64,000 nucleotides of DNA, taken from the NCBI GenBank assembly GCA_009786125.1, contig WQTU01000138.1:12721-76720 (forward strand). Reading direction: 5' to 3'. Below are positions 8,424 through 53,470 of this stretch, piece after piece. How positions within the stretch are numbered: the stretch's first letter is position 1; every line of letters begins with the position of its first letter. The notes under the pieces were generated by a model. The model did not search any database. It was given only the letters and a program-made list of their open reading frames with translations, and had not been told where the DNA came from. The position numbers and the translations under genes were made by a program. Origin of the DNA: Spirochaetota bacterium (GTDB lineage Bacteria > Spirochaetota > Spirochaetia > CADAEX01).

Positions 8424-9080
8424 TTATTTTTTGTTATAAAACAGCGCATGTTCGTAATCTTCTTTTTTTAACCCTTTTATTCCGTGCAGCTTTTTTATAG
8501 TCTCCGGCGAGTCATCAACCCTAACCGGTACAAAGCCTAATTTTGCAGCAGAGGCATTTAATATCAAATTGTTGATGCTGGCTGCCGACTGCAATCTGCA
8601 GGCAAGGTTAATACCATATCCAATATAATCGCGGTACTTGAGCTGCGATATCTCGGCAGATATTTCGTACTTAAACACCTGTTCATTAACAAGCGCTCCT
8701 GCCAGCCCCATATCCGGGTATGACTTAAATAAATCTTTAGTTAAGAAATCTGTGTATGTATTAAATATGGCAAGCGCTTCCTCTGTCGAATATTTATCGT
8801 TCTTGTCCCAAATAACGAGCGCGCCGTCTCCCATAAGCTTGTAATATGAGCAGCCATGTCCAAAATGATTTATACAAGCCAAAAAGTTTGTTGTAAATTC
8901 CTTAATAAGCTTGCAAATGGCATCGCTTGTCTGGGATGATAAAAAATTGCTAAAATTACGAATATCGACGCATAGAATAAGCGCATTTTTACAGACTTTG
9001 TTTAAATATATGCCATCGAAAAGATCGATCGGCATTTTTTTAAGCCCGTCAAGGGAAGCAGTTTTTATTGCGGGTTTCAT
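8424..9080 (-). CDS. minimal class III nucleotidyl (adenylyl/guanylyl) cyclase-like protein, paralog 1
   Basis: Motifs LCVDIRNFSNF (FxDIxGFT-like, metal Asp), YKLMGDGALVIW (KxxGD, specificity Lys and second metal Asp) and YRDYIGYGINLACRLQS (DxxGxxVNxAxR, catalytic Asn/Arg); 218 aa, no other domains; own RBS aaaggag. Confidence 0.6.
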   Translation of the reverse strand: MKPAIKTASLDGLKKMPIDLFDGIYLNKVCKNALILCVDIRNFSNFLSSQTSDAICKLIKEFTTNFLACINHFGHGCSYYKLMGDGALVIWDKNDKYSTEEALAIFNTYTDFLTKDLFKSYPDMGLAGALVNEQVFKYEISAEISQLKYRDYIGYGINLACRLQSAASINNLILNASAAKLGFVPVRVDDSPETIKKLHGIKGLKKEDYEHALFYNKK

Positions 9081-9575: not shown

Positions 9576-12182
9576 TTAGATTAGTTTTTTTTCCACAGCG
9601 ATGCGAATTAGGTCTGCCAGGTTTTTAGCGCCTGCTTTTGAGTAGATCATGTTGATCACCATTTTTACAGTATTAATCGAAAGGTTGTGGTTTTCTGCAA
9701 TTTCTGCACGCGAAAGACCGTGGGAAAGATCCAGGAGGATTTCGGTCTCCCTTGTCGATAGAGCGATATTGTCTGTAATATGCTTGACCTGCTTGTATTC
9801 TGTAACTACATGAGCCTGGCGTTTGGCATAGGTCGCGGCTTTTCGGTTGATTTTTTCCAGCCATGCTTTTGGGATAGCCGAAGCTGTATGCCGAAGATTT
9901 AGATGTGGATTTATTTCTGTTCCAGCAATATTCGGCGCCGCGGCAACAGCAGCGCCGCCTTCCTTTGCTGCCGCAGAAGTAAGAGTGCGCATATCTTTGC
10001 CCAGTTCAATAAAAGGCATCACAATATCATTAGGCTCTGCTGCCTTATAAGCCTCCAGCAGAGCAGCAAAAGCTTTTTTTTTGTCCTTCAGTTTATAATG
10101 CACACAAGCTTCCATTGCCAGCATTTCTATCCTGCCAAAGAGAAACGACTCCCGCTGCTTCATTTCCTGAATATACGCAAGAAGAGGAGAAAAGTTTCTT
10201 GTCATATAACAAAAGCGCGCTTTTAGCTGATTCCCAAAATTTTCAGTAAAAGCAGCATGGTCATAGGAAGAAAAATTTTCTTTAAGCCAGGCAGGCACAT
10301 TTTCCGGCAGGTCCAGAGCATAGTAATACCATGCAAGAGAAATATCGTAATTGATATAACGATGAGTATATTCATTTTCATCCAACTGATTTTTTGTTTC
10401 TTTCAGCGCCATTTCTGCATTTTCAAAATCCCCTTGCGCAAAGCTTATTCGCAAAGTATAAAGCAAAGCCCTGTGTGCAAACTCAAACTGTTTGTGCTTT
10501 GCTGCAAGGGAGAAAGCAAGAGCAATAAATTTTTCTGCTTCGCGTAAATCTCCCTGGTAAAACTTTAGCTCTCCCTTTGCCAGCTCGCTCTCTCCTGTTT
10601 CAATGTTATTAAAGCAGAGCGAGATAAAGTTAGATGCGCGGGTTAATGCACCGATAAATTTTTCAATAGCCCCTTTTTTGGGAGTGCCAACGCCGCAGAT
10701 CCATGCTCCCGGGCAGCGATTCGCGTATTTGCTGGGATCTGTAGGTCCCAAAAGGCAGTTGTAATATTTTTCAAAGTAAAGGTCAAAATCAAAGTTGTCG
10801 TCTGTTAGGCTCACTAAAAGGCGCAGAAAACCCCAGCAGTAATAGAGACCGCCCAAAGTGCGCTTCCTGAAAAGGCTATTTTTTGGCAGTTTGATGAATT
10901 TTGCCTCATAATATTCTGCCAGCTCAAGCGATTTTTGCCAGAGCCCCAGGCACATATAGCAGCGCAAGTGCATTATAGCAAGGAATTCCACTGTATCAAA
11001 AACCTCCGAAGGAGCTCTTTCAAAAATTTTTATTGCATATTGCGCAATGTCCGCAGGTATTTGAGCAGGTAACGCAAAAAAAATAGATACTATAGAGCTG
11101 TAGCTTCCTGCTTTTTCATAATAAGAGAGAGCATCTATCTTAAAATAATTCTTGCTGCACCAATCACCGGCAATTAAGTAGGTTTTCCGCTTTTCTTCCG
11201 CCGAGAGGAGCTCTTGTCTTTCAGAGAGAAATTCCAATAACAGATGGTGGATAAGATATGCATTTATATAGCTGTCCCTGCGCACATACGCGCTTTGCTT
11301 TTCCAGCTCGGCAATAAGGCTATCGTCATTTTCTGCCAGAAGATCAATAAGTTCAAAAGAGAGGTGACCAATAAGGGAGAGACGCACCAAAAAATTCTGC
11401 AGCCGGACGGAGACCCCATCCCAAATTTCTGTTTCCATTAGCCGGAAGATACTCGTCTTCATGGCATTGCGCAAATAGCCTTCGTAACCCGGCGCTTTTT
11501 GATACGACCGTGCGATAAGGTTTATTGCAAAGACCCAGCCTTCTGTATCCTGCATGATTCCGTGCAGACAATCTGCCTGAAGAGGAATATTTAGCTTTTG
11601 GAAATATTGAGCAAGTTCATTTTCTGTAAAGCGCAAATCGTTTTCACTTATGTTGAATATCCGGTCTTTGGAAACAAGGCTTGCAATATTGATGGATGGG
11701 GTGGAGCGGGAAATTATAACTATCGAAGTTCCGGGCATATTATGGGAGACACACTCTTCGATAAAATGAATTATAGAAGGATTTTCGATAAAATGAAAAT
11801 CATCAAAAACAATAACTCGCCGTTTAATCTCAGCAAGATCATGCACCAGGGACATGTATTTATTTTTTTTGTCTCTGGTATCCGGAAAACCAAGCTTGCC
11901 AGCTGCTTTGGCAAAAGGCACATTAATTTGCGCAAGAGAATAAGTATAGTTTTCCCAAAACCGCCCCCCCGCATTATCGCGTTCGGAAAGCTGTATCCAT
12001 ATTGTTGCTGTCTTGTACTCCTGCGCAAAGTCAGCAACTGCGCTGGTCTTGCCGTAGCCTGTTCCAGCGCATACAACAACCAGCGGATGACGCACAGCTT
12101 CTGTGAACAATCGGTTTATTCGCGGGCGTTCTAAATGGAAAAGAGAGCGATTTTCGTGGTGCCTTTTGAGTTTGTCTTCCAT
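9576..12182 (-). CDS. MalT-like STAND NTPase / LuxR-family transcriptional regulator (P-loop NTPase, helical/TPR-like region, C-terminal LuxR HTH)
   Basis: N-terminus RINRLF...LVVVCAGTGYGKTS is a Walker A like the MalT N-terminus; 868 aa; C-terminus LSTRETEILLDLSHGLSRAEIAENHNLSINTVKMVINMIYSKAG is a LuxR-type HTH. Confidence 0.8.
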   Translation of the reverse strand: MEDKLKRHHENRSLFHLERPRINRLFTEAVRHPLVVVCAGTGYGKTSAVADFAQEYKTATIWIQLSERDNAGGRFWENYTYSLAQINVPFAKAAGKLGFPDTRDKKNKYMSLVHDLAEIKRRVIVFDDFHFIENPSIIHFIEECVSHNMPGTSIVIISRSTPSINIASLVSKDRIFNISENDLRFTENELAQYFQKLNIPLQADCLHGIMQDTEGWVFAINLIARSYQKAPGYEGYLRNAMKTSIFRLMETEIWDGVSVRLQNFLVRLSLIGHLSFELIDLLAENDDSLIAELEKQSAYVRRDSYINAYLIHHLLLEFLSERQELLSAEEKRKTYLIAGDWCSKNYFKIDALSYYEKAGSYSSIVSIFFALPAQIPADIAQYAIKIFERAPSEVFDTVEFLAIMHLRCYMCLGLWQKSLELAEYYEAKFIKLPKNSLFRKRTLGGLYYCWGFLRLLVSLTDDNFDFDLYFEKYYNCLLGPTDPSKYANRCPGAWICGVGTPKKGAIEKFIGALTRASNFISLCFNNIETGESELAKGELKFYQGDLREAEKFIALAFSLAAKHKQFEFAHRALLYTLRISFAQGDFENAEMALKETKNQLDENEYTHRYINYDISLAWYYYALDLPENVPAWLKENFSSYDHAAFTENFGNQLKARFCYMTRNFSPLLAYIQEMKQRESFLFGRIEMLAMEACVHYKLKDKKKAFAALLEAYKAAEPNDIVMPFIELGKDMRTLTSAAAKEGGAAVAAAPNIAGTEINPHLNLRHTASAIPKAWLEKINRKAATYAKRQAHVVTEYKQVKHITDNIALSTRETEILLDLSHGLSRAEIAENHNLSINTVKMVINMIYSKAGAKNLADLIRIAVEKKLI

Positions 12183-12193
12183 AATATACTAGT

Positions 12194-12967
12194 TTATTTT
12201 TTGTTATAAAACAGTGCAGTCAGGCGGTCTTCTTTTTTTAGACCCTTTAAACAGCGTAACTGGTTTAGAATTTCCGGCGATTCATCGACCTTGACCGATA
12301 CGAACCCGGATTTTGCAATGGAGTCATTTAATATTAGTTTGTTAATCCCAGCCAAAGTCTGTAACCTGCAGGCAAGATTAATGCCATAGCCAACATAATC
12401 GCGGTACTTAAGCTGCGATATCTCGGCAGATATTTCGTATTTGAATATCTCTTCATTAACAAGCGCTCCTGCCAATCCCAAACATGGAAATGGCTTAAAC
12501 AAATCTTCGCTTAAGAATTCGTTATAGTTGTTAAATATAGAAATTGCTTCATTTACTGAGTTTTTAGTGGTTTCCTCCCAAATTATTATGGCTCCGTCTC
12601 CCGTAAGTTTGTAATATGAGCAGCCGGATCCAAAGTGATTGATACAAGCAAGGAGGTTTGTCGTGAATTCCCTGATAAGCTTATAAACAACCTCTTCTGG
12701 GTTGGTAGATAAAAACTTGCTAAAATTACGAGTATCGATACATAAAATAAGCGCATTTTTGAAAGCTTTGCCTAAATATACACCATCGAAAATATCGACC
12801 GGCATTTTATCGAGCCCTGTAAGAGTAGCGGCGTTTATTACTATCTGATTTTTCTTATCTGAAGCCCCAATTCCAGCATGACCCGGGATATGACCGGATA
12901 GGTTTTTATTAACAGTAGAGAACTTAAGAATTTTGTTCTCCGGAGAATTCGCAAAGTTGTTAATCAT
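12194..12967 (-). CDS. minimal class III nucleotidyl cyclase-like protein, paralog 2 (about 40-aa N-terminal extension)
   Basis: Same motifs (LCIDTRNFSKF, YKLTGDGAIIIW, YRDYVGYGINLACRLQT); long stretches identical in DNA to paralog 1 (…atcgcggtacttXagctgcgatatctcggcagatatttcgta…); its stop lies 11 nt before the MalT-like start. Confidence 0.6.
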   Translation of the reverse strand: MINNFANSPENKILKFSTVNKNLSGHIPGHAGIGASDKKNQIVINAATLTGLDKMPVDIFDGVYLGKAFKNALILCIDTRNFSKFLSTNPEEVVYKLIREFTTNLLACINHFGSGCSYYKLTGDGAIIIWEETTKNSVNEAISIFNNYNEFLSEDLFKPFPCLGLAGALVNEEIFKYEISAEISQLKYRDYVGYGINLACRLQTLAGINKLILNDSIAKSGFVSVKVDESPEILNQLRCLKGLKKEDRLTALFYNKK

Positions 12968-13029
12968 ATTATAAGGCTATACAAATATAGTTTTTTTTGC
13001 AATACGAAATTAAATAACCATTGTTTAGG

Positions 13030-13060
13030 AAACCGCTGATTTATTCAATCGAGAATAAAT
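13030..13060. repeat. partial inverted copy of the dispersed GC-rich repeat family
   Basis: ggaaaccgctgatttattcaatcgagaat is the reverse complement of attctcgattggataaatcagcggttccc at about 18868-18896. Confidence 0.5.
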
Positions 13061-13274
13061 CAGCAATACATTATTATCCTTTTTTCGCAGTTTTCTGCAA
13101 GAAAACGAGAAAAAATATGGAAGCACTGATTAGAGTCAAATAAGAACCTACTATGAGCCTATCATATATTTTGTCATTTACACAAAATATATGATAGGCT
13201 CCTATTAATGCCAGATGGCTAAAATAACACCTTTTATTTTGAATCAAAATTCCAAATCCGCAGTTTAGATAAGC

Positions 13275-13934
13275 ATGAAAAAACAAACATCAAAGTATAA
13301 TCATATTTTTAATATATCGCGACTAGAAGAAAAGTCGCAGGCTGTTATCGACTGGAAAAAGCAAATCTCCGAATGGTTGGCGCCTAAAAACCTATTGCAG
13401 GCAAAAGGAAAAACGAGAAAAGAAATATTTGCCTTGTTTGGCAATGAATATGAACCCATTGCCGCAATTCCTCTCAAATATCTCAAATATTTAGGCGATG
13501 ATATTACTAATCAAACAGTCTATTCCGGCAAAGGATATTTTATAGACCATGCAGTCAACCATCATCCGGAAGTAGATGCCGTGGAGTATCAAAAAATTCC
13601 AGATATTTTATCTAATCCAGATGATGTAAAGTTAGATAATAGAAAACCTTCTAGAAATTCCCTTGTTTTCATAAAAAAGCATGAAAAATATGATACAGCA
13701 GTAGTAAGTGTTGATACCACAGACGAAGGCAAGATTGTTATCCACAAAACATACTTTGTAAATAAAAAAAGCCCATATACTCAATTACAAAGTATATGGG
13801 CTAAATCGTCGGACGACGCAAACACGTCCATCAGTCATGCGGGAAACCCCGCATCCGCCGGAAAGCGATTTTCCGCTCTTGACGATACATCTTCACTATC
13901 ATCTAAAAATGACCAAAAGTCAAGCAAAACTTGA
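13275..13934 (+). CDS. hypothetical protein (orphan; Ser/Asp-rich C-terminal tail)
   Basis: 219-aa ORF transcribed divergently from cyclase paralog 2. The central block YFIDHAVNHHPEV...IPDILSNPDDVKLDNRKPSRNSLVFIKK...TAVVSVDTTDEGKIVIHKTYF looks like a small toxin/nuclease-type fold, but this is unconfirmed. Confidence 0.4.
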   Translation: MKKQTSKYNHIFNISRLEEKSQAVIDWKKQISEWLAPKNLLQAKGKTRKEIFALFGNEYEPIAAIPLKYLKYLGDDITNQTVYSGKGYFIDHAVNHHPEVDAVEYQKIPDILSNPDDVKLDNRKPSRNSLVFIKKHEKYDTAVVSVDTTDEGKIVIHKTYFVNKKSPYTQLQSIWAKSSDDANTSISHAGNPASAGKRFSALDDTSSLSSKNDQKSSKT

Positions 13935-14009
13935 AAAGCAGCAAAACTTTGTGCCTATATGCACGACTCAATGGCGACTTCGTGCCTTCGTGCGAACCAA
14001 ATTGTGCCC

Positions 14010-14180
14010 TTAGTGCCTTGCGGCATGGACGCCGCATCCCTGCGCAGCGGCATGGACGCCGCGAAACTAGCGCAGGGTCATGCTAACCTAATTGTGCTAA
14101 AAAGCTTAATAAACAGCAAAACCTTGTGTCTTAGCGCCTTGCGGCATGGACGCCGCGAAACTAGCGCAGGGTCATGCGAA
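14010..14180. repeat. cluster of GC-rich REP-like palindromes (gcggcATGGACgccgc x3; 35-45-bp unit x2)
   Basis: The unit ggcatggacgccgcgaaactagcgcagggtcatgc occurs at about 14050 and 14143; the 16-nt palindrome occurs three times; GC-rich in an AT-rich background. Confidence 0.7.
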
Positions 14181-14255
14181 GCATTGGCGTACCCCAAACC
14201 TGTCTCGATGGTTCAAATTTGTTACAAAAATTCAAAGAATTTGCAAAATTTTTTC

Positions 14256-14284
14256 TTGACGTGCAAAAATAGTGTTGCTATAAT
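14256..14284 (+). promoter_or_regulatory. sigma70-like promoter (TTGACG-17-TATAAT) for the outer membrane protein gene
   Basis: Near-consensus -35/-10 with a 17-nt spacer, about 75 nt upstream of the ATG; RBS gaaaggag. Confidence 0.5.
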
Positions 14285-14360
14285 TAATTGAAATTATTTT
14301 TACTAGAAGGGAATATGAAAGTCATAGGCTTTTACCCTAAATTTTGAAAGGAGAATAATA

Positions 14361-15623
14361 ATGAAATTAAAATTTATTTTAGTAGTAGCTCTTGCAGTTT
14401 TTGTAATAGCTCCTGCTGTGGCAAGTCCTACAGTTACCGGCACCATGAGGATGGGCGTTTTTGGCGATGTAATTGATAACCACTATGTTGGAAGGCTGGA
14501 CAGAGCCAGGCTGATTTTTAGCTCTAATATCGATGAGTACAACACTCTTAGACTGGAACTAAGAGCAGATAGGAATAGAGAGGAACTTGGTACTAACAAT
14601 GTGTATGGTGGTGCTATTCCTATGCTTACTCCTGGGAGGACATTTGCTGACTCTGGTGCTCATGATATGAAGTATGCTATGGCTCTTCATGCTGCTACAG
14701 TAAGAACAAACTGGGCAAGGTTTTTTGGATTCGAAGACACTGTAGGTCTTGCAACTACTGTTGGGATGAATGCATTTACAACATTTAGTAGAGTCGGCGG
14801 TTACACAATTTGGGCTACAGGCAGCCAGGAGCTAGGTATTACCAGAAACCTTGGCGGAAGACTGGATTTAACTATTGCAGACGGTCTTGTAAGACCATAT
14901 ATCGCAGGCAGCGCTTATGCATTTAGAGACAATGATAGCCATGTGTTTGGTTTTCTTGGCGGAGTAGGCTTTGATTTTAACGCAATAGATGTACCTTTAT
15001 GGCTCGAAGCTTTCTTTATCCAGGATGGTGATGAAGACCACAGGGCTTTTGGTGTAGAAGCACAATTTGCAATGGAAGTTGCAGACGACATGAACCTTAG
15101 AATTGGCGGTGTTCTTGATATGCGAAATGCTGCTAACTGGGGTGGCAATCATTGGGGTAATGGAGTTTTTAACCCAGATAATGATTGGTTAGCTGCTTTT
15201 AAAGCATTGGCAGATTTCTCTGCTATGGGTGCAACTTTTGGCGTTGCTTTCTTGGGCATACCTAATGTAGGTCCGGACGACGACATGGGATTAGGAAAAC
15301 TTGCTGTATCTTTTGCTTATAATTTTACGAACTTCTTTACTCTACAGGCTGGGGCTAAGTTTGCTTTTGGCAACTATTCAGAATTTCTAGCTAATGACGA
15401 AGTATTTCTTGGAGCAGAATTTGGAGTTAGATTAAGACCAGGCAGAGTTACTTATGCTTTTGGTTATGTATTTCTTAACGAAGATGCTAACGGCGCTTAT
15501 GCATCCGATACTTGGGGACTTGGCGGTGTTGCAAGCAACGATCTTGGACAAATTATAGGTCGCAGTCGGGCAGCAGCTTTGAATACAGGCGCAATCTTCT
15601 TTGGAGTTAACGCTAGCTTCTAG
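14361..15623 (+). CDS. secreted outer-membrane (beta-barrel-like) protein with signal peptide
   Basis: N-terminus MKLKFILVVALAVFVIAPAVASP is a signal peptide; Gly/aromatic-rich alternating sequence; C-terminal ...GVNASF with terminal Phe; 420 aa. Membership of the treponemal major-sheath (MOSP/Tpr) family is possible but unverified. Confidence 0.5.
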   Translation: MKLKFILVVALAVFVIAPAVASPTVTGTMRMGVFGDVIDNHYVGRLDRARLIFSSNIDEYNTLRLELRADRNREELGTNNVYGGAIPMLTPGRTFADSGAHDMKYAMALHAATVRTNWARFFGFEDTVGLATTVGMNAFTTFSRVGGYTIWATGSQELGITRNLGGRLDLTIADGLVRPYIAGSAYAFRDNDSHVFGFLGGVGFDFNAIDVPLWLEAFFIQDGDEDHRAFGVEAQFAMEVADDMNLRIGGVLDMRNAANWGGNHWGNGVFNPDNDWLAAFKALADFSAMGATFGVAFLGIPNVGPDDDMGLGKLAVSFAYNFTNFFTLQAGAKFAFGNYSEFLANDEVFLGAEFGVRLRPGRVTYAFGYVFLNEDANGAYASDTWGLGGVASNDLGQIIGRSRAAALNTGAIFFGVNASF

Positions 15624-15637
15624 TGTTTAATATTTTA

Positions 15638-15684
15638 TGAGCTTCGGCTCACGTTTAAGAGGGGCTTGCGCCCCTCTTTTTTTA
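15638..15684 (+). terminator. rho-independent terminator
   Basis: Hairpins gagcttcggctc and agaggggcttgcgcccctct followed by T7. Confidence 0.75.
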
Positions 15685-15774
15685 GTTCTTTGTGTCGTGT
15701 ACTAAAAATGATAACTGATGCCTGCTTGTTTTATAATGCTGTTCGCAGTAAATCTTGCTTTTATTTGTTGACGT

Positions 15775-15850
15775 AACGAGGGTCGCGGGCAAACAAAGTT
15801 TGCACACAAAGTACCCCTTGCGGGTGTGACCGAGTGAGGAGACAAACAAA
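15775..15850. repeat. inverted copy of the dispersed GC-rich repeat family
   Basis: The reverse complement closely matches 53325-53390 (ggtcacacccacaaggggtactttgtgtgcaaact.cgtttgcccgcga). Confidence 0.7.
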
Positions 15851-15855
15851 ATGTT

Positions 15856-15999
15856 TTATACATTTATTTTAGTTGGTACTGGGAAAGAATGATTATTTAC
15901 AGGGCTATGCCATATATCATGGCTACCCTTGCCGTGACGTACAAAATAGCAGCCGTTTTCTTTAAGGATTTTACGCACCTTTTTTTCATATTCTGCCAT
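15856..15999 (-). CDS. hicA: HicA-family mRNA interferase toxin (47 aa; below the ORF-track size cutoff)
   Basis: Translation MAEYEKKVRKILKENGCYFVRHGKGSHDIWHSPVNNHSFPVPTKINV has the HicA signature (K..L...G......GSH..........VP); its ATG overlaps the upstream hicB stop by 1 nt (TAATG). Confidence 0.7.
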   Translation of the reverse strand: MAEYEKKVRKILKENGCYFVRHGKGSHDIWHSPVNNHSFPVPTKINV

Positions 16000-16241
16000 T
16001 AGGCTATAACCTTAGCACGTTTCTTAATAGAAAAATTAAGGTATACATTTTGATATTCTTTGTTGTTTAATTCCAGTATTTCTGGAGTAGCAAGTCTTAC
16101 TCGCTCAATAAGAAGATCAAGAGAACCGTTTTCAAGGGTGAGCGGTATATCATCGTTTATAGCTATCCATACCCGTGCTTCGTCGTCCCATATAAGCATA
16201 ATTTCATATTCGTTCATGGCTATATCTCCCCTTGTGTTCAT
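15999..16241 (-). CDS. hicB: HicB-like (DUF1902-type) antitoxin
   Basis: 80 aa; YEIMLIWDDEARVWIAINDDIPLTLENGSLDLLIERVRLATPEILELN fits the HicB/DUF1902 N-terminal fold pattern; translationally coupled to hicA. Confidence 0.55.
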   Translation of the reverse strand: MNTRGDIAMNEYEIMLIWDDEARVWIAINDDIPLTLENGSLDLLIERVRLATPEILELNNKEYQNVYLNFSIKKRAKVIA

Positions 16242-16287
16242 TATAACCTATATTATAAGAATATGGCAGTATATTTCTTCGTCTGTG

Positions 16288-16395
16288 TTATTTCCAAATT
16301 GGGCGCGCAAGCCTATCTTCCTTGCCAATTTCACGCGCAGACTCCAGGCGCAGCTCAATATATTCCTCTCTGGCTATTTTCAATAGACTTTTCAT
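16288..16395 (-). pseudogene. degenerate third copy of the rpn C-terminal unit (35 codons; MKSLLKIAREEYIELRLESAREIGKEDRLARPIWK)
   Basis: My own translation; its start overlaps the stop of the 67-aa ORF (ATGA). Confidence 0.5.
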
Positions 16396-16595
16396 AACTT
16401 CTCTACTTCTTCGATGGGAAGTCCAACTCCTTCAGCTATTTGTTCAAGCGAAAGTCCCATAGCTTTGAATTTTCGAGCTGTTTCGAGCAATTTTTCTCTG
16501 CCTTCGGCAAGCCCTTCTTCCTTGCCAATTTCACGCGCAGATTCCAGGCGCAGTTCGATATACTCTTCTCTGGTTATTTTCAATAGGCTTTTCAT
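16392..16595 (-). CDS. stand-alone RpnS-like small protein (duplicate of the Rpn C-terminal domain)
   Basis: The 67-aa MKSLLKITREEYIELRLESAREIGKEEGLAEGREKLLETARKFKAMGLSLEQIAEGVGLPIEEVEKL is 64/67 aligned to the last 64 aa of Rpn; its ATG overlaps the rpn stop (ATGA). Confidence 0.6.
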   Translation of the reverse strand: MKSLLKITREEYIELRLESAREIGKEEGLAEGREKLLETARKFKAMGLSLEQIAEGVGLPIEEVEKL

Positions 16596-17548
16596 AACTT
16601 CTCTACTTCTTCGATGGGAAGTCCCGTTGCCTCTGCAATTTGCGATAAAGAAAGTCTCATAGTCTTGAGTTTTCGCGCTGTTTCGAGTTTTGCCTTGGCA
16701 AGCCCTTCTTCCTTGCCAATTTCACGCGCAGACTCCAGGCGCAGCTCAATATATTCCTCTCTGGTTATTTTCAATAGGCTTTTCATAACTTCCTCCCCGT
16801 GGGTTTCAAGAAACTTTCTTAATATATTATGTTCTATGCATTCCTTAATGGCAAGCCGAAAAGCTTCCTCAAGCTCTTCTTTTTTGGTTAAGCCTGCCTG
16901 CTTCTCCCTTACAATTTCAACGAATTTTGCAAACTCTCCCAAATCGCGATTTTTTGCCATGAGCCTCTTGTTATGTCCAAGGTTAATATTATACACTTTA
17001 ACCTCAAGTTCGAGATTATACTGGAGATTTGTACAAAAATTTATATTTGTTTCGACAACATCCGGTATACCTTCTTCTATCCCAGCTCTTTTTTTAAATG
17101 CTTGAGAAAGACGCAATGTTGTTTCTTCCGGATATGGCGCTTTGCCATTGTAAAACAAATAAAACTCGGGATTTGGGAGCTCAAGTCCCCGCTCTGCATA
17201 GAGTTCTTTGCGGAGAATCATTTTCTCATACAGAGCTGCTACGTATAACAAAAATCTAATAGGCATATTGGGATTAATAGTTGACTGATGCTCTATCAGG
17301 ACAATGGTTTTGTCGCCAATGGTAAAGGATATATCATTCTTTAAGCCTATGCCTAAGGTTTCCTGTAATGTGTTAATGGTCATTGGGGTTTCTTTGCTGT
17401 AAGAAGAGCCAGTAATGGTATTATAAAGCTCCCTTAGTTTGTTTTGGTCAGAAAACAGCATACAGAACACGCTGTCTTTGTATTTCTTATACTTTGATGT
17501 TTGTCTTTTCATATTACTAGTAACTGCGGATTTGGAAATTTGATTCAA
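16592..17548 (-). CDS. Rpn-family recombination-promoting nuclease / putative transposase (YhgA-like, PD-(D/E)XK)
   Basis: 318 aa with an N-terminal nuclease-like region and the characteristic C-terminal ...LSLSQIAEATGLPIEEVEKL tail. An internal GGAGG(N5)ATG sits at 16784-16798, at the start of the C-terminal 64 codons. Confidence 0.75.
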   Translation of the reverse strand: MNQISKSAVTSNMKRQTSKYKKYKDSVFCMLFSDQNKLRELYNTITGSSYSKETPMTINTLQETLGIGLKNDISFTIGDKTIVLIEHQSTINPNMPIRFLLYVAALYEKMILRKELYAERGLELPNPEFYLFYNGKAPYPEETTLRLSQAFKKRAGIEEGIPDVVETNINFCTNLQYNLELEVKVYNINLGHNKRLMAKNRDLGEFAKFVEIVREKQAGLTKKEELEEAFRLAIKECIEHNILRKFLETHGEEVMKSLLKITREEYIELRLESAREIGKEEGLAKAKLETARKLKTMRLSLSQIAEATGLPIEEVEKL

Positions 17549-17570
17549 AATTCTTTGAAAAAAGACTCTG

Positions 17571-17605
17571 TGTTGGAGTTAACGCTAGCTTCTAGTGTTT
17601 AATAT
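17571..17605 (+). pseudogene. remnant 3' end of an outer-membrane-protein paralog (ttggagttaacgctagcttctagtgtttaatattt = ...VGVNASF*)
   Basis: A 35-nt exact match to 15601-15635 (the end of the 14361-15623 gene plus its stop), followed by its own terminator. Confidence 0.6.
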
Positions 17606-17630
17606 TTGGCGGGGTTAACCTCGTGTTTTA

Positions 17631-17660
17631 AGAGCCGGCTTTTTGCCGGCTCTTTTTTTT
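17631..17660 (+). terminator. rho-independent terminator after the gene remnant
   Basis: agagccggc-ttttt-gccggctct followed by T8. Confidence 0.7.
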
Positions 17661-17797
17661 CTTGATAAAAAAATGGATATAAGTTATACTTCTATTAGAG
17701 GTGTATCCATGTGGATGCATGGGTTACCGAAGAGTCGTAAGACACACCCGGGACCAAGTCCTACACCTTTTTTAGGGGGAATCAGAAGGGGTTCCCC

Positions 17798-18058
17798 CTA
17801 TTTTTTAGTTTTTTTCTGGTTTATTGATTCAGCTTTTATGGCTGCCCATGAAGTAAAGTTTTCCGGATGTTCTTTGCGCTCTTTACGCCCTGCCTTAATA
17901 ACTGCTTTTTCGCTTGCAGTTAAATTTGTCTCAATAACAAGCCTATCGTCTTGCTTCATGGCAAGAAAAGAAAGCATTGGGCGTACTATTTCAAGGTTGC
18001 TTTCCGGTATTTTGTCAATATATTGTTTTAACTCTCGTCTTATTGTGATAGCGTCCAT
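17798..18058 (-). CDS. hypothetical 86-aa protein, possible partner (antitoxin?) of the upstream relE-like gene
   Basis: Starts 3 nt after the relE-like stop on the same strand; no recognisable HTH; basic C-terminus. Confidence 0.3.
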   Translation of the reverse strand: MDAITIRRELKQYIDKIPESNLEIVRPMLSFLAMKQDDRLVIETNLTASEKAVIKAGRKERKEHPENFTSWAAIKAESINQKKTKK

Positions 18059-18061
18059 TTT

Positions 18062-18311
18062 TTACTTCTCCCTGTATACTTGCCCTCTATGAGCTATTTT
18101 GAAAACGTCAATTCTATTTTTTTCTATGTCAAAAAGTATTCGATAGTCTCCAACAACAACACGGTATCCGTCCCGGCCTTGCAGTTTTTTAATGTCTCCT
18201 TCCAAGCGGCTCTCTTTCCAGTTTATCAAGGGCGGCAGTTATGCGGCTTAGATATGGCTCATTCAATCGGTGAAACTGTTTTCTTGCCGTGCTGTTTAGC
18301 TCTACCTTCAT
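18062..18311 (-). pseudogene. relE: RelE/ParE-family toxin gene disrupted by a +1 frameshift
   Basis: Translation gives MKVELNSTARKQFHRLNEPYLSRITAALDKLEREPLG(RRH*); in the +1 frame it continues GDIKKLQGRDGYRVVVGDYRILFDIEKNRIDVFKIAHRGQVYREK, the classic RelE/ParE C-terminus. The extra base is in ccgcttGgaagga. Confidence 0.65.
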
Positions 18312-18689
18312 AATTATATATTTTTCTCTTATATTCATTATACCTATATTATAAAAATATGGTATATCTCTTTTTTTAATTGCCCGCTATATGAAAAGGC
18401 ACCCATAAATGTTTAAAACACTACAAGATAAAAACTTTTTCAAAATGGTTAAAATATCATTTGATACTATAGGCTGGCCAAATGGAATTGATTTAGACCC
18501 AGAAATCCTTTATGAAAAATCGAACTTTGTCTAAAAGATAAATTACTCATTTTGACCTATCACTTTAAAGGTTTTGCAGTGGATTGGGGAAAGCCTGTCT
18601 GTTTTATTAACCTATGGAATCGCTGATTAGATTTGACTCTATCCATATTTTTCTTGTTTTCTTGCAGAAAACTGCGGCACTGCAAAGCA

Positions 18690-18950
18690 GACTGCGCTCG
18701 GTCGAAAAAAACATCGGCTGCGAAAAAAGGATACCGCAGCAAAGCTGCGTTTCCTTATTCGCTCGGTAATGTGCGTGCAAGCCCGCCCGCTACACTCGCT
18801 TCATTCGGAAATAAGGTAAAGCAAGCCCCGTTCGGGATGCTTTGCAATTCTCGATTGGATAAATCAGCGGTTCCCTGCCTTAGGAGCCGAGTGCCGCGGG
18901 CAAGCTGCCTGGTGGTCGCGAAGCGTACCCTTTATTGCGAAAGGATTATA
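18690..18950. repeat. composite copy of the dispersed GC-rich repeat family
   Basis: The first half resembles 53395-53460 (gtgcgtgcaagcccgcccgctacactcgcttcattcggaaataa); the second half resembles 8360-8425 (gcgggcaagctgcctggtggtcgcgaagcgtaccctttatt). Confidence 0.7.
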
Positions 18951-19184
18951 AAAAGCTCTTGAAATATGAAGCTATGTATTATACAGTTAAATATCAGGCC
19001 TTAAGATAGAAATGGAACAAGAGGATAGAGAAGTATTAACACGCCAAACGCATGAAATTTTGTAATTCATTACAGGATAAAGACTTAGCTGACATTGCAT
19101 TAAACCTATGTATTTTGTAATTCTTTGCCTTGTAAGAAGATAGCACAATTCATGCGTTTGACGTGCAAAAACTATCAAAAACAA

Positions 19185-19213
19185 TTGACATAAAATCAGG
19201 TTTTTTATATATT
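19185..19213 (+). promoter_or_regulatory. candidate sigma70 promoter (TTGACA-17-TATATA) for the riboflavin operon leader
   Basis: -35/-10 with a 17-nt spacer about 85 nt upstream of the FMN riboswitch. The motif ttgacgtgcaaaaa at 19157-19170 is also shared with the promoter at 14256. Confidence 0.4.
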
Positions 19214-19297
19214 AAACGCAGATAAATAATACTGTTTATCCACATTTTTTGTGGATGGATAACATTTTTTCGCTTTGAAAGCAGCAAAAATGTGGCT

Positions 19298-19432
19298 TTC
19301 GAGGTCAAATATTAAATTCTTCAGGGCAGGGTGAAAGTCCCTACCGGTGGTAAAGCCCACGAGCCAAAAGGCAGATTCGGTGTGATTCCGAAGCCGACAG
19401 TCAGAGTCTGGATGAAAGAAGATTGACGCATT
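19298..19432 (+). ncRNA. FMN riboswitch (RFN element)
   Basis: TCTTCAGGGCAGGGTGAAAGTCCCTACCGGTGGTAAAGCCCACGAGC...GATTCGGTGTGATTCCGAAGCCGACAGTCAGAGTCTGGATGAAAGAAGA matches the RFN consensus; lies directly upstream of ribD. Confidence 0.9.
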
Positions 19433-53254: not shown

Positions 53255-53470
53255 TGAGCATGGTTAGGTTTTATTATGAGGCATCACTCGCTCGGTTCAC
53301 AATGGGCATAGCCCCTTTGTCCGCCTCGCCGTTCGGTCACACCCACAAGGGGTACTTTGTGTGCAAACTACGTTTGCCCGCGATTCTCGCTTACTTGGTG
53401 GATGTGCATGCAAGCACGCCCGCGACGCTCGCTTTATTCAGAAATAAAAAAACAAGCACAAAAAAACCGG
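53255..53470. repeat. copy of the dispersed GC-rich repeat family
   Basis: Matches 18690-18830 (direct) and 15775-15850 (inverted). Confidence 0.7.

Follow-up and report, generated by a model that had tools for sequence, protein, structure and literature searches.

Why does the last stretch of an outer-membrane protein gene occur a second time 2 kb further on, with toxin-antitoxin (TA) and Rpn-family genes between the two copies? The question is raised by a locus of an uncultured spirochaete, which lies in a 64-kb window (the whole stretch of DNA analyzed here) of a 105.8-kb metagenome contig (ENA ERZ27257345, k141, NCBI locus tag FWC36_10560). There, a porin-like gene ends in a 35-nt sequence that recurs, without its gene, beside rpn. 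An initial annotation, made from the letters and the open reading frames (ORFs), took the orphan copy for the remains of a tandem porin paralog that was deleted or replaced when the TA and rpn genes arrived. The reading that we favor, and to which we give about an even chance, is a direct-repeat-flanked insertion into a hotspot that accumulates TA and defense genes, which duplicated the porin gene's own tip.

Results

A 35-nt repeat with sharp edges

The 35-mer TTGGAGTTAACGCTAGCTTCTAGTGTTTAATATTT is present exactly twice in the window, at 15601-15635 (copy 1, R1) and at 17573-17607 (copy 2, R2), both on the plus strand, confirming the duplication that had been noticed, although the second copy had been placed two bases off (17571-17605). 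The copies are in direct orientation and 1,972 bp apart, and no further copy with three or fewer mismatches was found in the window; none of 100 shuffles gave two matches. Because the bordering bases differ between the copies (t on both sides of copy 1, g on both sides of copy 2), the repeat is exactly 35 nt long. It is not a common repeat scattered over unrelated sites either: its 25-base core gave no additional match in JGI metagenome contigs, viral contigs, or the loci that were fetched, among them 19 kb of a 20.6-kb contig that belongs to this assembly. A hairpin (H1, 15606-15631) lies inside copy 1 and spans the porin stop codon. A reading of the 35-mer as an integron attC or dif-like site was rejected, as the core motifs misfit (judged by eye only).

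Over 14148-15630 and 17578-18753, the window is reproduced exactly by two independent contigs (Logan, k=31, SRR5247064). Their ends fall on positions 30 and 6 of the repeat, which is the de Bruijn graph break expected for a 35-nt repeat, and the other end of the first contig stops within a 37-nt exact repeat at 14141-14177. Since these contigs break exactly at the 35-mer, the repeat is real and not an assembly artefact, and as the k of the source assembly (141) exceeds the repeat length, both junctions must be spanned by reads. The exact HicB, HicA, and Rpn proteins had no Logan contig, though the porin and an 86-amino-acid ORF behind copy 2 had one. The expected 740-nt Logan unitig (15606-16345) would carry hicA and hicB whole; possible causes of the missing contig are a cut-off on length or coverage, minor sequence differences, and polymorphism of the block in the sample.

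Copy 2 has no coding sequence upstream and abuts the start of rpn, as first described; the conserved 5′ end of the rpn unit (17551) is 21 nt away, and the start codon of rpn (ATG at 17512) 60 nt. A tblastn search of 15624-19300 with the porin and 31 members of its family found nothing credible beyond the seven codons held in copy 2. The 21 nt upstream of the orphan are not porin-like (anchored alignment, p=0.13) and read FEKRLCV in the porin frame, unlike the last β-strand of the family. The promoter scan gave no promoter-like site upstream of copy 2 on the plus strand, and Rfam over 12.9-19.5 kb returned only an FMN riboswitch above threshold, all other matches being far below it.

Each copy is followed by its own, different intrinsic terminator (T1 and T2, Table 1), each after a short hairpin, as had also been noticed. 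Both 3′ regions fold into three hairpins at identical offsets; that of copy 2 is a very stable three-hairpin fold ending in a strong terminator (z = -5.0). With the end of the 35-mer as anchor, the downstream regions aligned at p ~0.007 against random window sequence, better than 99% of positions. We first favored T1 and T2 as homologues with compensatory changes but dropped this as evidence when the copy-1 3′ region was scored against every window position (Smith-Waterman): the copy-2 region scored 32, as did the unrelated terminator at 17773-17800, and other terminators scored 28-36, so that the similarity past base 35 is not above the generic terminator level. As far as alignment can define it, the repeat is a sharp-edged 35-bp block.

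Table 1. Features at and around the two copies of the porin gene tip (window coordinates)
Feature	Position	Strand	Basis or remark
Porin-like outer-membrane β-barrel gene, 420 amino acids, intact, ends ...GVNASF*	14361-15623	+	ORF, AlphaFold2 and Foldseek
R1 (35-mer copy 1)	15601-15635	+	Last 23 coding bases including stop (...GVNASF*) of the 14361-15623 gene, plus 12 bases
Small hairpin (15638-15651) and intrinsic terminator T1 (15657-15678)	15638-15678	+	Between the convergent porin and hicA genes
hicBA cassette	16245 to 15702	-	Homologue comparison
hicA toxin gene, interrupted	15702-15999	-	Pfam HicA_toxin 32.4 bits (cut-off 27)
hicB-type antitoxin gene, DUF1902, 72 amino acids	15999-16217	-	Pfam 58.5 bits
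hicBA promoter/5′ untranslated region (UTR) segment	16217-16279	-	~84% identical to the 18328-18372 segment of the second TA operon
Standalone copies of the Rpn C-terminal tail	16303-16595	-	67-amino-acid ORF 16392-16595; truncated third copy 16303-16401
rpn gene, 306 amino acids, ATG at 17512, with conserved leader 17513-17551	16592-17551	-	5′ edge set by paralogs
Spacer of uncertain origin, rpn leader to R2	17552-17572	.	21 nt
R2 (orphan 35-mer copy)	17573-17607	+	35/35 identical to R1
Small hairpin (17609-17624) and intrinsic terminator T2 (17630-17654)	17609-17654	+	Hairpin/terminator prediction
Second TA operon	17798-18372	-	ParE/RelE-like toxin 18338-18062 (frameshifted); 86-amino-acid ORF 18058-17798; shared promoter 18328-18372
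5′-truncated DUF2442 gene, residues 42-79 remain	18409-18534	+	83% nucleotide and 87% amino-acid identity to the orthologous locus gene (L001)

A single-copy porin family and the ancestral order of the locus

Relatives of the porin were sought by word-indexed and exhaustive HMMER protein searches and by scans of GTDB genomes and JGI metagenomes, which gave one positional orthologue (42% identity) and 31 family representatives. The family is small, as these 31 representatives at 50% identity come from among 1.8 billion proteins, and it was single-copy in all 15 loci fetched with flanks; none of the 10 family loci checked repeats the porin 3′ end. The proposed search for paralogs of the 420-amino-acid protein likewise yielded no second member in the window. 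The database search returned no other protein of this genome, the only other match being 42% identical and from a different spirochaete assembly.

The positional orthologue belongs to a Spirochaetaceae metagenome-assembled genome (loci L001/L007). Upstream of the porin, both genomes carry an OmpA-family gene and the genes for a HAD hydrolase (70% amino-acid identity) and enolase (89%), the HAD/enolase pair being inverted in one of the two. The other check proposed was for an intact second porin in related strains; L001, which is only 42% identical in a database landscape that holds no close relative, has one porin, with a DUF2442 gene 70 nt past its stop codon. Of this DUF2442 gene, the window retains the C-terminal half, now 2.8 kb downstream of the porin. 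From the order in L001 and this remnant, the ancestral arrangement was porin, terminator, DUF2442, and everything between 15636 and 18408 is therefore later. The TA and rpn genes are thus secondary arrivals between the porin and its original neighbor, as initially claimed; that they replaced a porin paralog is not borne out. L001 carries another TA system (VapBC) nearby.

The label of outer-membrane protein given to the 420-amino-acid product holds up. It has a signal peptide, a predicted multi-strand β-barrel, and a C-terminal aromatic residue (Phe), and it matches no Pfam family. The AlphaFold2 model is a β-barrel (predicted local distance difference test 73, predicted template modeling score 0.71), and its top Foldseek matches are the C. 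jejuni MOMP, OmpU, and OmpF, with other porins among the best solved structures. A promoter-like site precedes the gene at 14256-14284 (promoter scan 11/12). Just upstream of this promoter, GC-rich local repeats occupy 13950-14200 in a spacer that is otherwise AT-rich (14047-14086 and 14141-14180, 40 nt, 97.5%).

Age of the duplication

Between the porin orthologues, nucleotide identity is 60% overall and 75% over the last 24 aligned bases, stop included, so constraint on the gene end does not explain an identity of 35/35. As the orphan copy is non-coding and yet identical at all 35 positions, the duplication is recent. The locus holds a second repeat pair with which it can be compared, since the two unrelated TA operons, hicBA and the ParE-like one, share ~50 nt of promoter/5′ UTR at 84% identity. 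Were both pairs of equal age, the calculated chance of seeing no change in the 35-mer would be 0.84^35, or ~0.002, and the 35-mer pair is therefore the younger. The perfect identity of a non-coding orphan beside sequence that cannot be aligned points to a recent, breakpoint-bounded duplication of the 35-mer and not to a decayed paralog.

The DNA between the copies

The initial annotation described a hicBA/Rpn module bracketed by the repeat. The bracketing is correct, but the bracketed DNA does not behave as a single module, since at least three independent pieces can be told apart. As judged from homologues, it is a composite of a hicBA cassette, a small repeat element in hicA, and an rpn unit that includes additional tail ORFs, and hicBA and rpn are found separately elsewhere. 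No contrast in base composition was seen between the block and its flanks.

In comparison with the intact 64-amino-acid HicA of two other loci (L030/L035), the hicA gene is broken up by a GC-rich repeat element of ~100 nt (core 15773-15833): residues 1-45 are encoded at 15999-15865 and the last ~20 residues (…KARFTANSIIKQAGISYHF*) at 15761-15702 in another frame. Both HicAB domains are present, with hicA interrupted by the ~100-nt insertion. A second copy of the element, 90% identical, lies at 53333-53394 after a flagellin gene, in the same relative orientation. The copy behind flagellin had raised the possibility that the element is the native 3′ flank of the porin, which was rejected, as the element lies within hicA. 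For hicB, 81 homologues were found, and the three neighborhoods examined (L030-L035) are unlike the present one; hicBA relatives stand alone in unrelated places, for example, within an ABC-transporter operon, and the cassettes in L030, L034, and L035 have different upstream sequences.

The rpn unit as a whole spans 16303-17551. Its product is, by homology, an Rpn-family protein and a predicted nuclease (PD-(D/E)XK, COG5464/Transposase_31), with 3,114 homologues, many of them named Rpn or carrying PF04754; its own direct Pfam score for PF04754 is 18.5 bits, below the cut-off of 21. The 67-amino-acid tail ORF is 83% identical to the rpn tail and overlaps the rpn stop by 4 nt. This layout recurs with a 68-amino-acid ORF in a paralog from the same assembly (L023, 10933-11139), and the tail ORFs match the "downstream small protein homologs" (RpnSs) of some Escherichia coli rpn genes. 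The rpn paralogs in the same and related assemblies (L023-L025) share the 5′ edge at 17551 and are unlinked to hicBA.

Several rearrangements around rpn were seen apart from the 35-mer. In L023, the rpn paralog is preceded by an rpn-tail remnant and 84 nt that also stand behind its own tail ORF (9706-9814 and 11012-11235, 86% identity), which fits a tandem duplication of the rpn unit followed by a deletion; the 84-nt direct repeats near this paralog derive from the rpn tail itself. Upstream of the porin, a PBECR3-domain gene (13275-13934) has at its start the conserved leader and first 8-9 codons of rpn; the shared stretch (13236-13300 against 17487-17551) is inverted, 90% identical, and sharp-edged. 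From this alignment, it looks as if the 5′ end of rpn was fused to an unrelated nuclease-domain gene.

Downstream of copy 2 and in the wider surroundings

In the second TA operon, the ParE/RelE-like toxin gene (18062-18338) is frameshifted at an A-run, which is no assembly error because the independent Logan contig has the same sequence. The 86-amino-acid ORF beside it matches no Pfam family. Behind T2, a ~110-nt region on the plus strand (17697-17806) is delimited by a promoter-like site at 17662-17690 and a bidirectional terminator at 17773-17800 and has a stable fold (z = -3.2). It matches no Rfam family and is possibly a small RNA convergent with the TA operon.

A dispersed repeat of ~130 nt (13027-13154 and 18620-18876, inverted) flanks the whole region from PBECR3 through the porin to the TA genes. 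The right-hand copy has a GC-rich insert, and a 97% identical copy is present on another contig of the assembly (L023, 3762-3917). Further upstream, a MalT-like regulator gene (9576-12182) stands between two paralogous genes without assigned function (8424-9080 and 12194-12967), which share 76% nucleotide identity over 650 nt.

Discussion

If the orphan tip stems from an insertion, foreign or relocated DNA (now 15636-17572) would have recombined into the short spacer between the porin and DUF2442 genes, and this single event would have produced the 35-bp direct repeat. The porin would have been kept intact and gained T1 as a new terminator, with its old end (R2 and T2) displaced downstream. 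Two routes could lead there: a single-crossover integration, Campbell-type or att-like, of a circle in which the 35 bases were already present, or the fill-in repair of a staggered break. The order of 35-mer, hairpin, terminator, convergent TA genes, and shared promoter occurs twice (15601-16279 and 17573-18372), and this doubled order together with the shared promoter suggests that the incoming piece may stem from the equivalent locus of a related strain with different TA cargo. Such a donor would, we infer, account for all four repeat edges and for the unequal identities of the two repeat pairs.

Several observations weigh against an insertion of this kind. Neither an integrase nor a transposase was found in or beside the block by Pfam, by precomputed annotations over 4.3-25.6 kb, or among further ORFs, and no terminal inverted repeats pair the block ends. 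At 35 bp, the repeat far exceeds known transposon target duplications. Other hicBA cassettes have no flanking repeats, and rpn genes, which are not transposases, in general lack target duplications (Zhong et al., PMC10400941). An empty site, a circular form, or a second copy of the block was not found in the searched databases, which hold no close relative. Finally, the same three-hairpin layout and offsets at both 3′ regions, along with the anchored p ~0.007, leave room for both being genuine porin-type 3′ ends.

Compared with known systems, the locus resembles the attL/attR ends of islands that target the 3′ ends of genes (tRNA, tmRNA, and protein genes), where an exact direct repeat of the target's 3′ tip flanks the insert, and the target gene stays intact with new sequence downstream while its original end is displaced. 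The length of the repeat (tens of bp) and its imperfect palindrome would also fit a recombinase core site. Unlike such islands, the present 1.9-kb block is put together from unrelated small modules and has no integrase in or near it; neither an empty site nor a copy carrying attP turned up, and L001 lacks the block but is only 42% identical. A transposon target-site duplication is likewise an exact direct repeat that directly flanks the insert, but it usually measures 2-15 bp, and the expected terminal inverted repeats and transposase are missing here. The locus also resembles integration hotspots or defense islets, in which alternative TA/defense cargo gathers between conserved core genes, as a 70-nt spacer in the orthologue corresponds to 2.8 kb with two TA operons and an rpn unit, and some of its members are decayed (the split hicA, the frameshifted ParE-like toxin gene, and the truncated DUF2442 gene); this hotspot behavior is read from one contrast between two genomes.

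The alternative that survives best, although we consider it unlikely, is the one first proposed, in which a second porin gene, either a tandem paralog or a relative's copy, stood upstream of R2 and T2 and lost its body by deletion or replacement with rpn/TA DNA, leaving its last seven codons and the terminator. Copy 2 does have a correctly oriented hairpin and terminator laid out like a real gene end, and the anchored alignment of the downstream regions speaks for it. The interleaving of 35-mer, TA promoter, 35-mer, and TA promoter would fit two copies of a larger unit, and the outer edges of both repeat pairs adjoin the rpn unit, as if rpn had replaced the interior. However, no coding trace extends beyond the seven codons, the 21 nt upstream are not porin-like, and the terminator similarity is at generic background. 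A diverged paralog would also sit badly with the perfect identity of a non-coding orphan beside sequence that cannot be aligned, whereas a recent tandem duplicate should have the terminator in common too. With the outgroup and all 15 family loci being single-copy, and no paralog in the window or from this genome in the database search, a lost porin needs a duplication that no relative shows.

An in-situ tandem duplication of a ~0.7-0.8-kb unit, reaching from 23 nt before the porin stop to the TA promoter, would explain why two collinear, interleaved repeat pairs bound segments of the same architecture. In this scenario, the cargo and terminator of one copy were swapped later and rpn was inserted at the joint. 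We find it improbable, as the interiors are unrelated (hicBA against the ParE-like toxin and 86-amino-acid ORF), the terminators cannot be aligned, and the repeat pairs differ in age (100% against 84% identity). Moreover, rpn must land exactly at the joint, which together with the cargo swap amounts to at least three extra events.

The initial annotation also named the Rpn nuclease as a candidate agent of the rearrangement, which is speculation. RpnA of E. coli is a non-specific endonuclease whose overexpression raises RecA-independent recombination, and a template-switch model has been proposed (PMC5350276). Zhong et al. speculate on Rpn proteins as possible initiators of rearrangements near the genes that encode them (PMC10400941). 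The present locus is like the rpn loci known from E. coli and from other bacteria (PMC10400941, PMC5350276) in having an Rpn-family gene (NCBI name Rpn) with small tail ORFs downstream, in the duplications and fusions around rpn (the leader fused to the PBECR3 gene, the tail remnant upstream in L023), and in its place among TA and defense genes; it is unlike them in that an exact repeat of a host gene's tip encloses the block with rpn, an arrangement not seen in that work. The closeness of the rpn unit to the orphan (21 nt) and the other rpn-linked scars (the PBECR3 fusion at 13236-13300 and the L023 tail remnant) are suggestive only. It is a long shot that the 35-mer is the footprint of an rpn-linked duplicative joining, such as Rpn-promoted template-switch or staggered-cut repair that stacked two versions of TA cargo in tandem.

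Retention of the orphan for a function, either as a terminator or insulator that protects the promoter region of rpn or as a small RNA mimicking the 3′ end of the porin mRNA, is very unlikely: the very stable fold with its strong terminator and the perfect conservation relative to R1 would suit such a role, but no plus-strand promoter-like site lies upstream, Rfam matches are far below threshold, and recency explains the perfect identity equally well. Hardly credible at all is an assembly artefact or a two-strain chimera joined at the repeat, for although the source is a metagenome-assembled genome and the exact HicB, HicA, and Rpn proteins lack a Logan contig, k=141 exceeds the repeat so that reads must span both junctions, and the independent k=31 assembly has a two-in/two-out branch exactly at the repeat.

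Should the joining prove to be rpn-linked, this would be the first natural junction in which a defined duplicate of host sequence is tied to rpn, a feature reported absent in surveys of rpn loci, and a link between the origin of the repeat and the movement of rpn, if population data ever showed one, would be relevant to the way in which rpn genes spread although they are not transposons. Most likely, however, the locus holds a rearrangement scar of an ordinary kind, in a hotspot of gene accretion, and matters little beyond itself. As such, it records the growth of a 70-nt spacer downstream of a porin gene into 2.8 kb of accumulated, partly decayed TA and Rpn genes in a termite-gut-type spirochaete, and it suggests that a short exact repeat of a gene tip beside defense genes is better read as the scar of an insertion than as a lost paralog.

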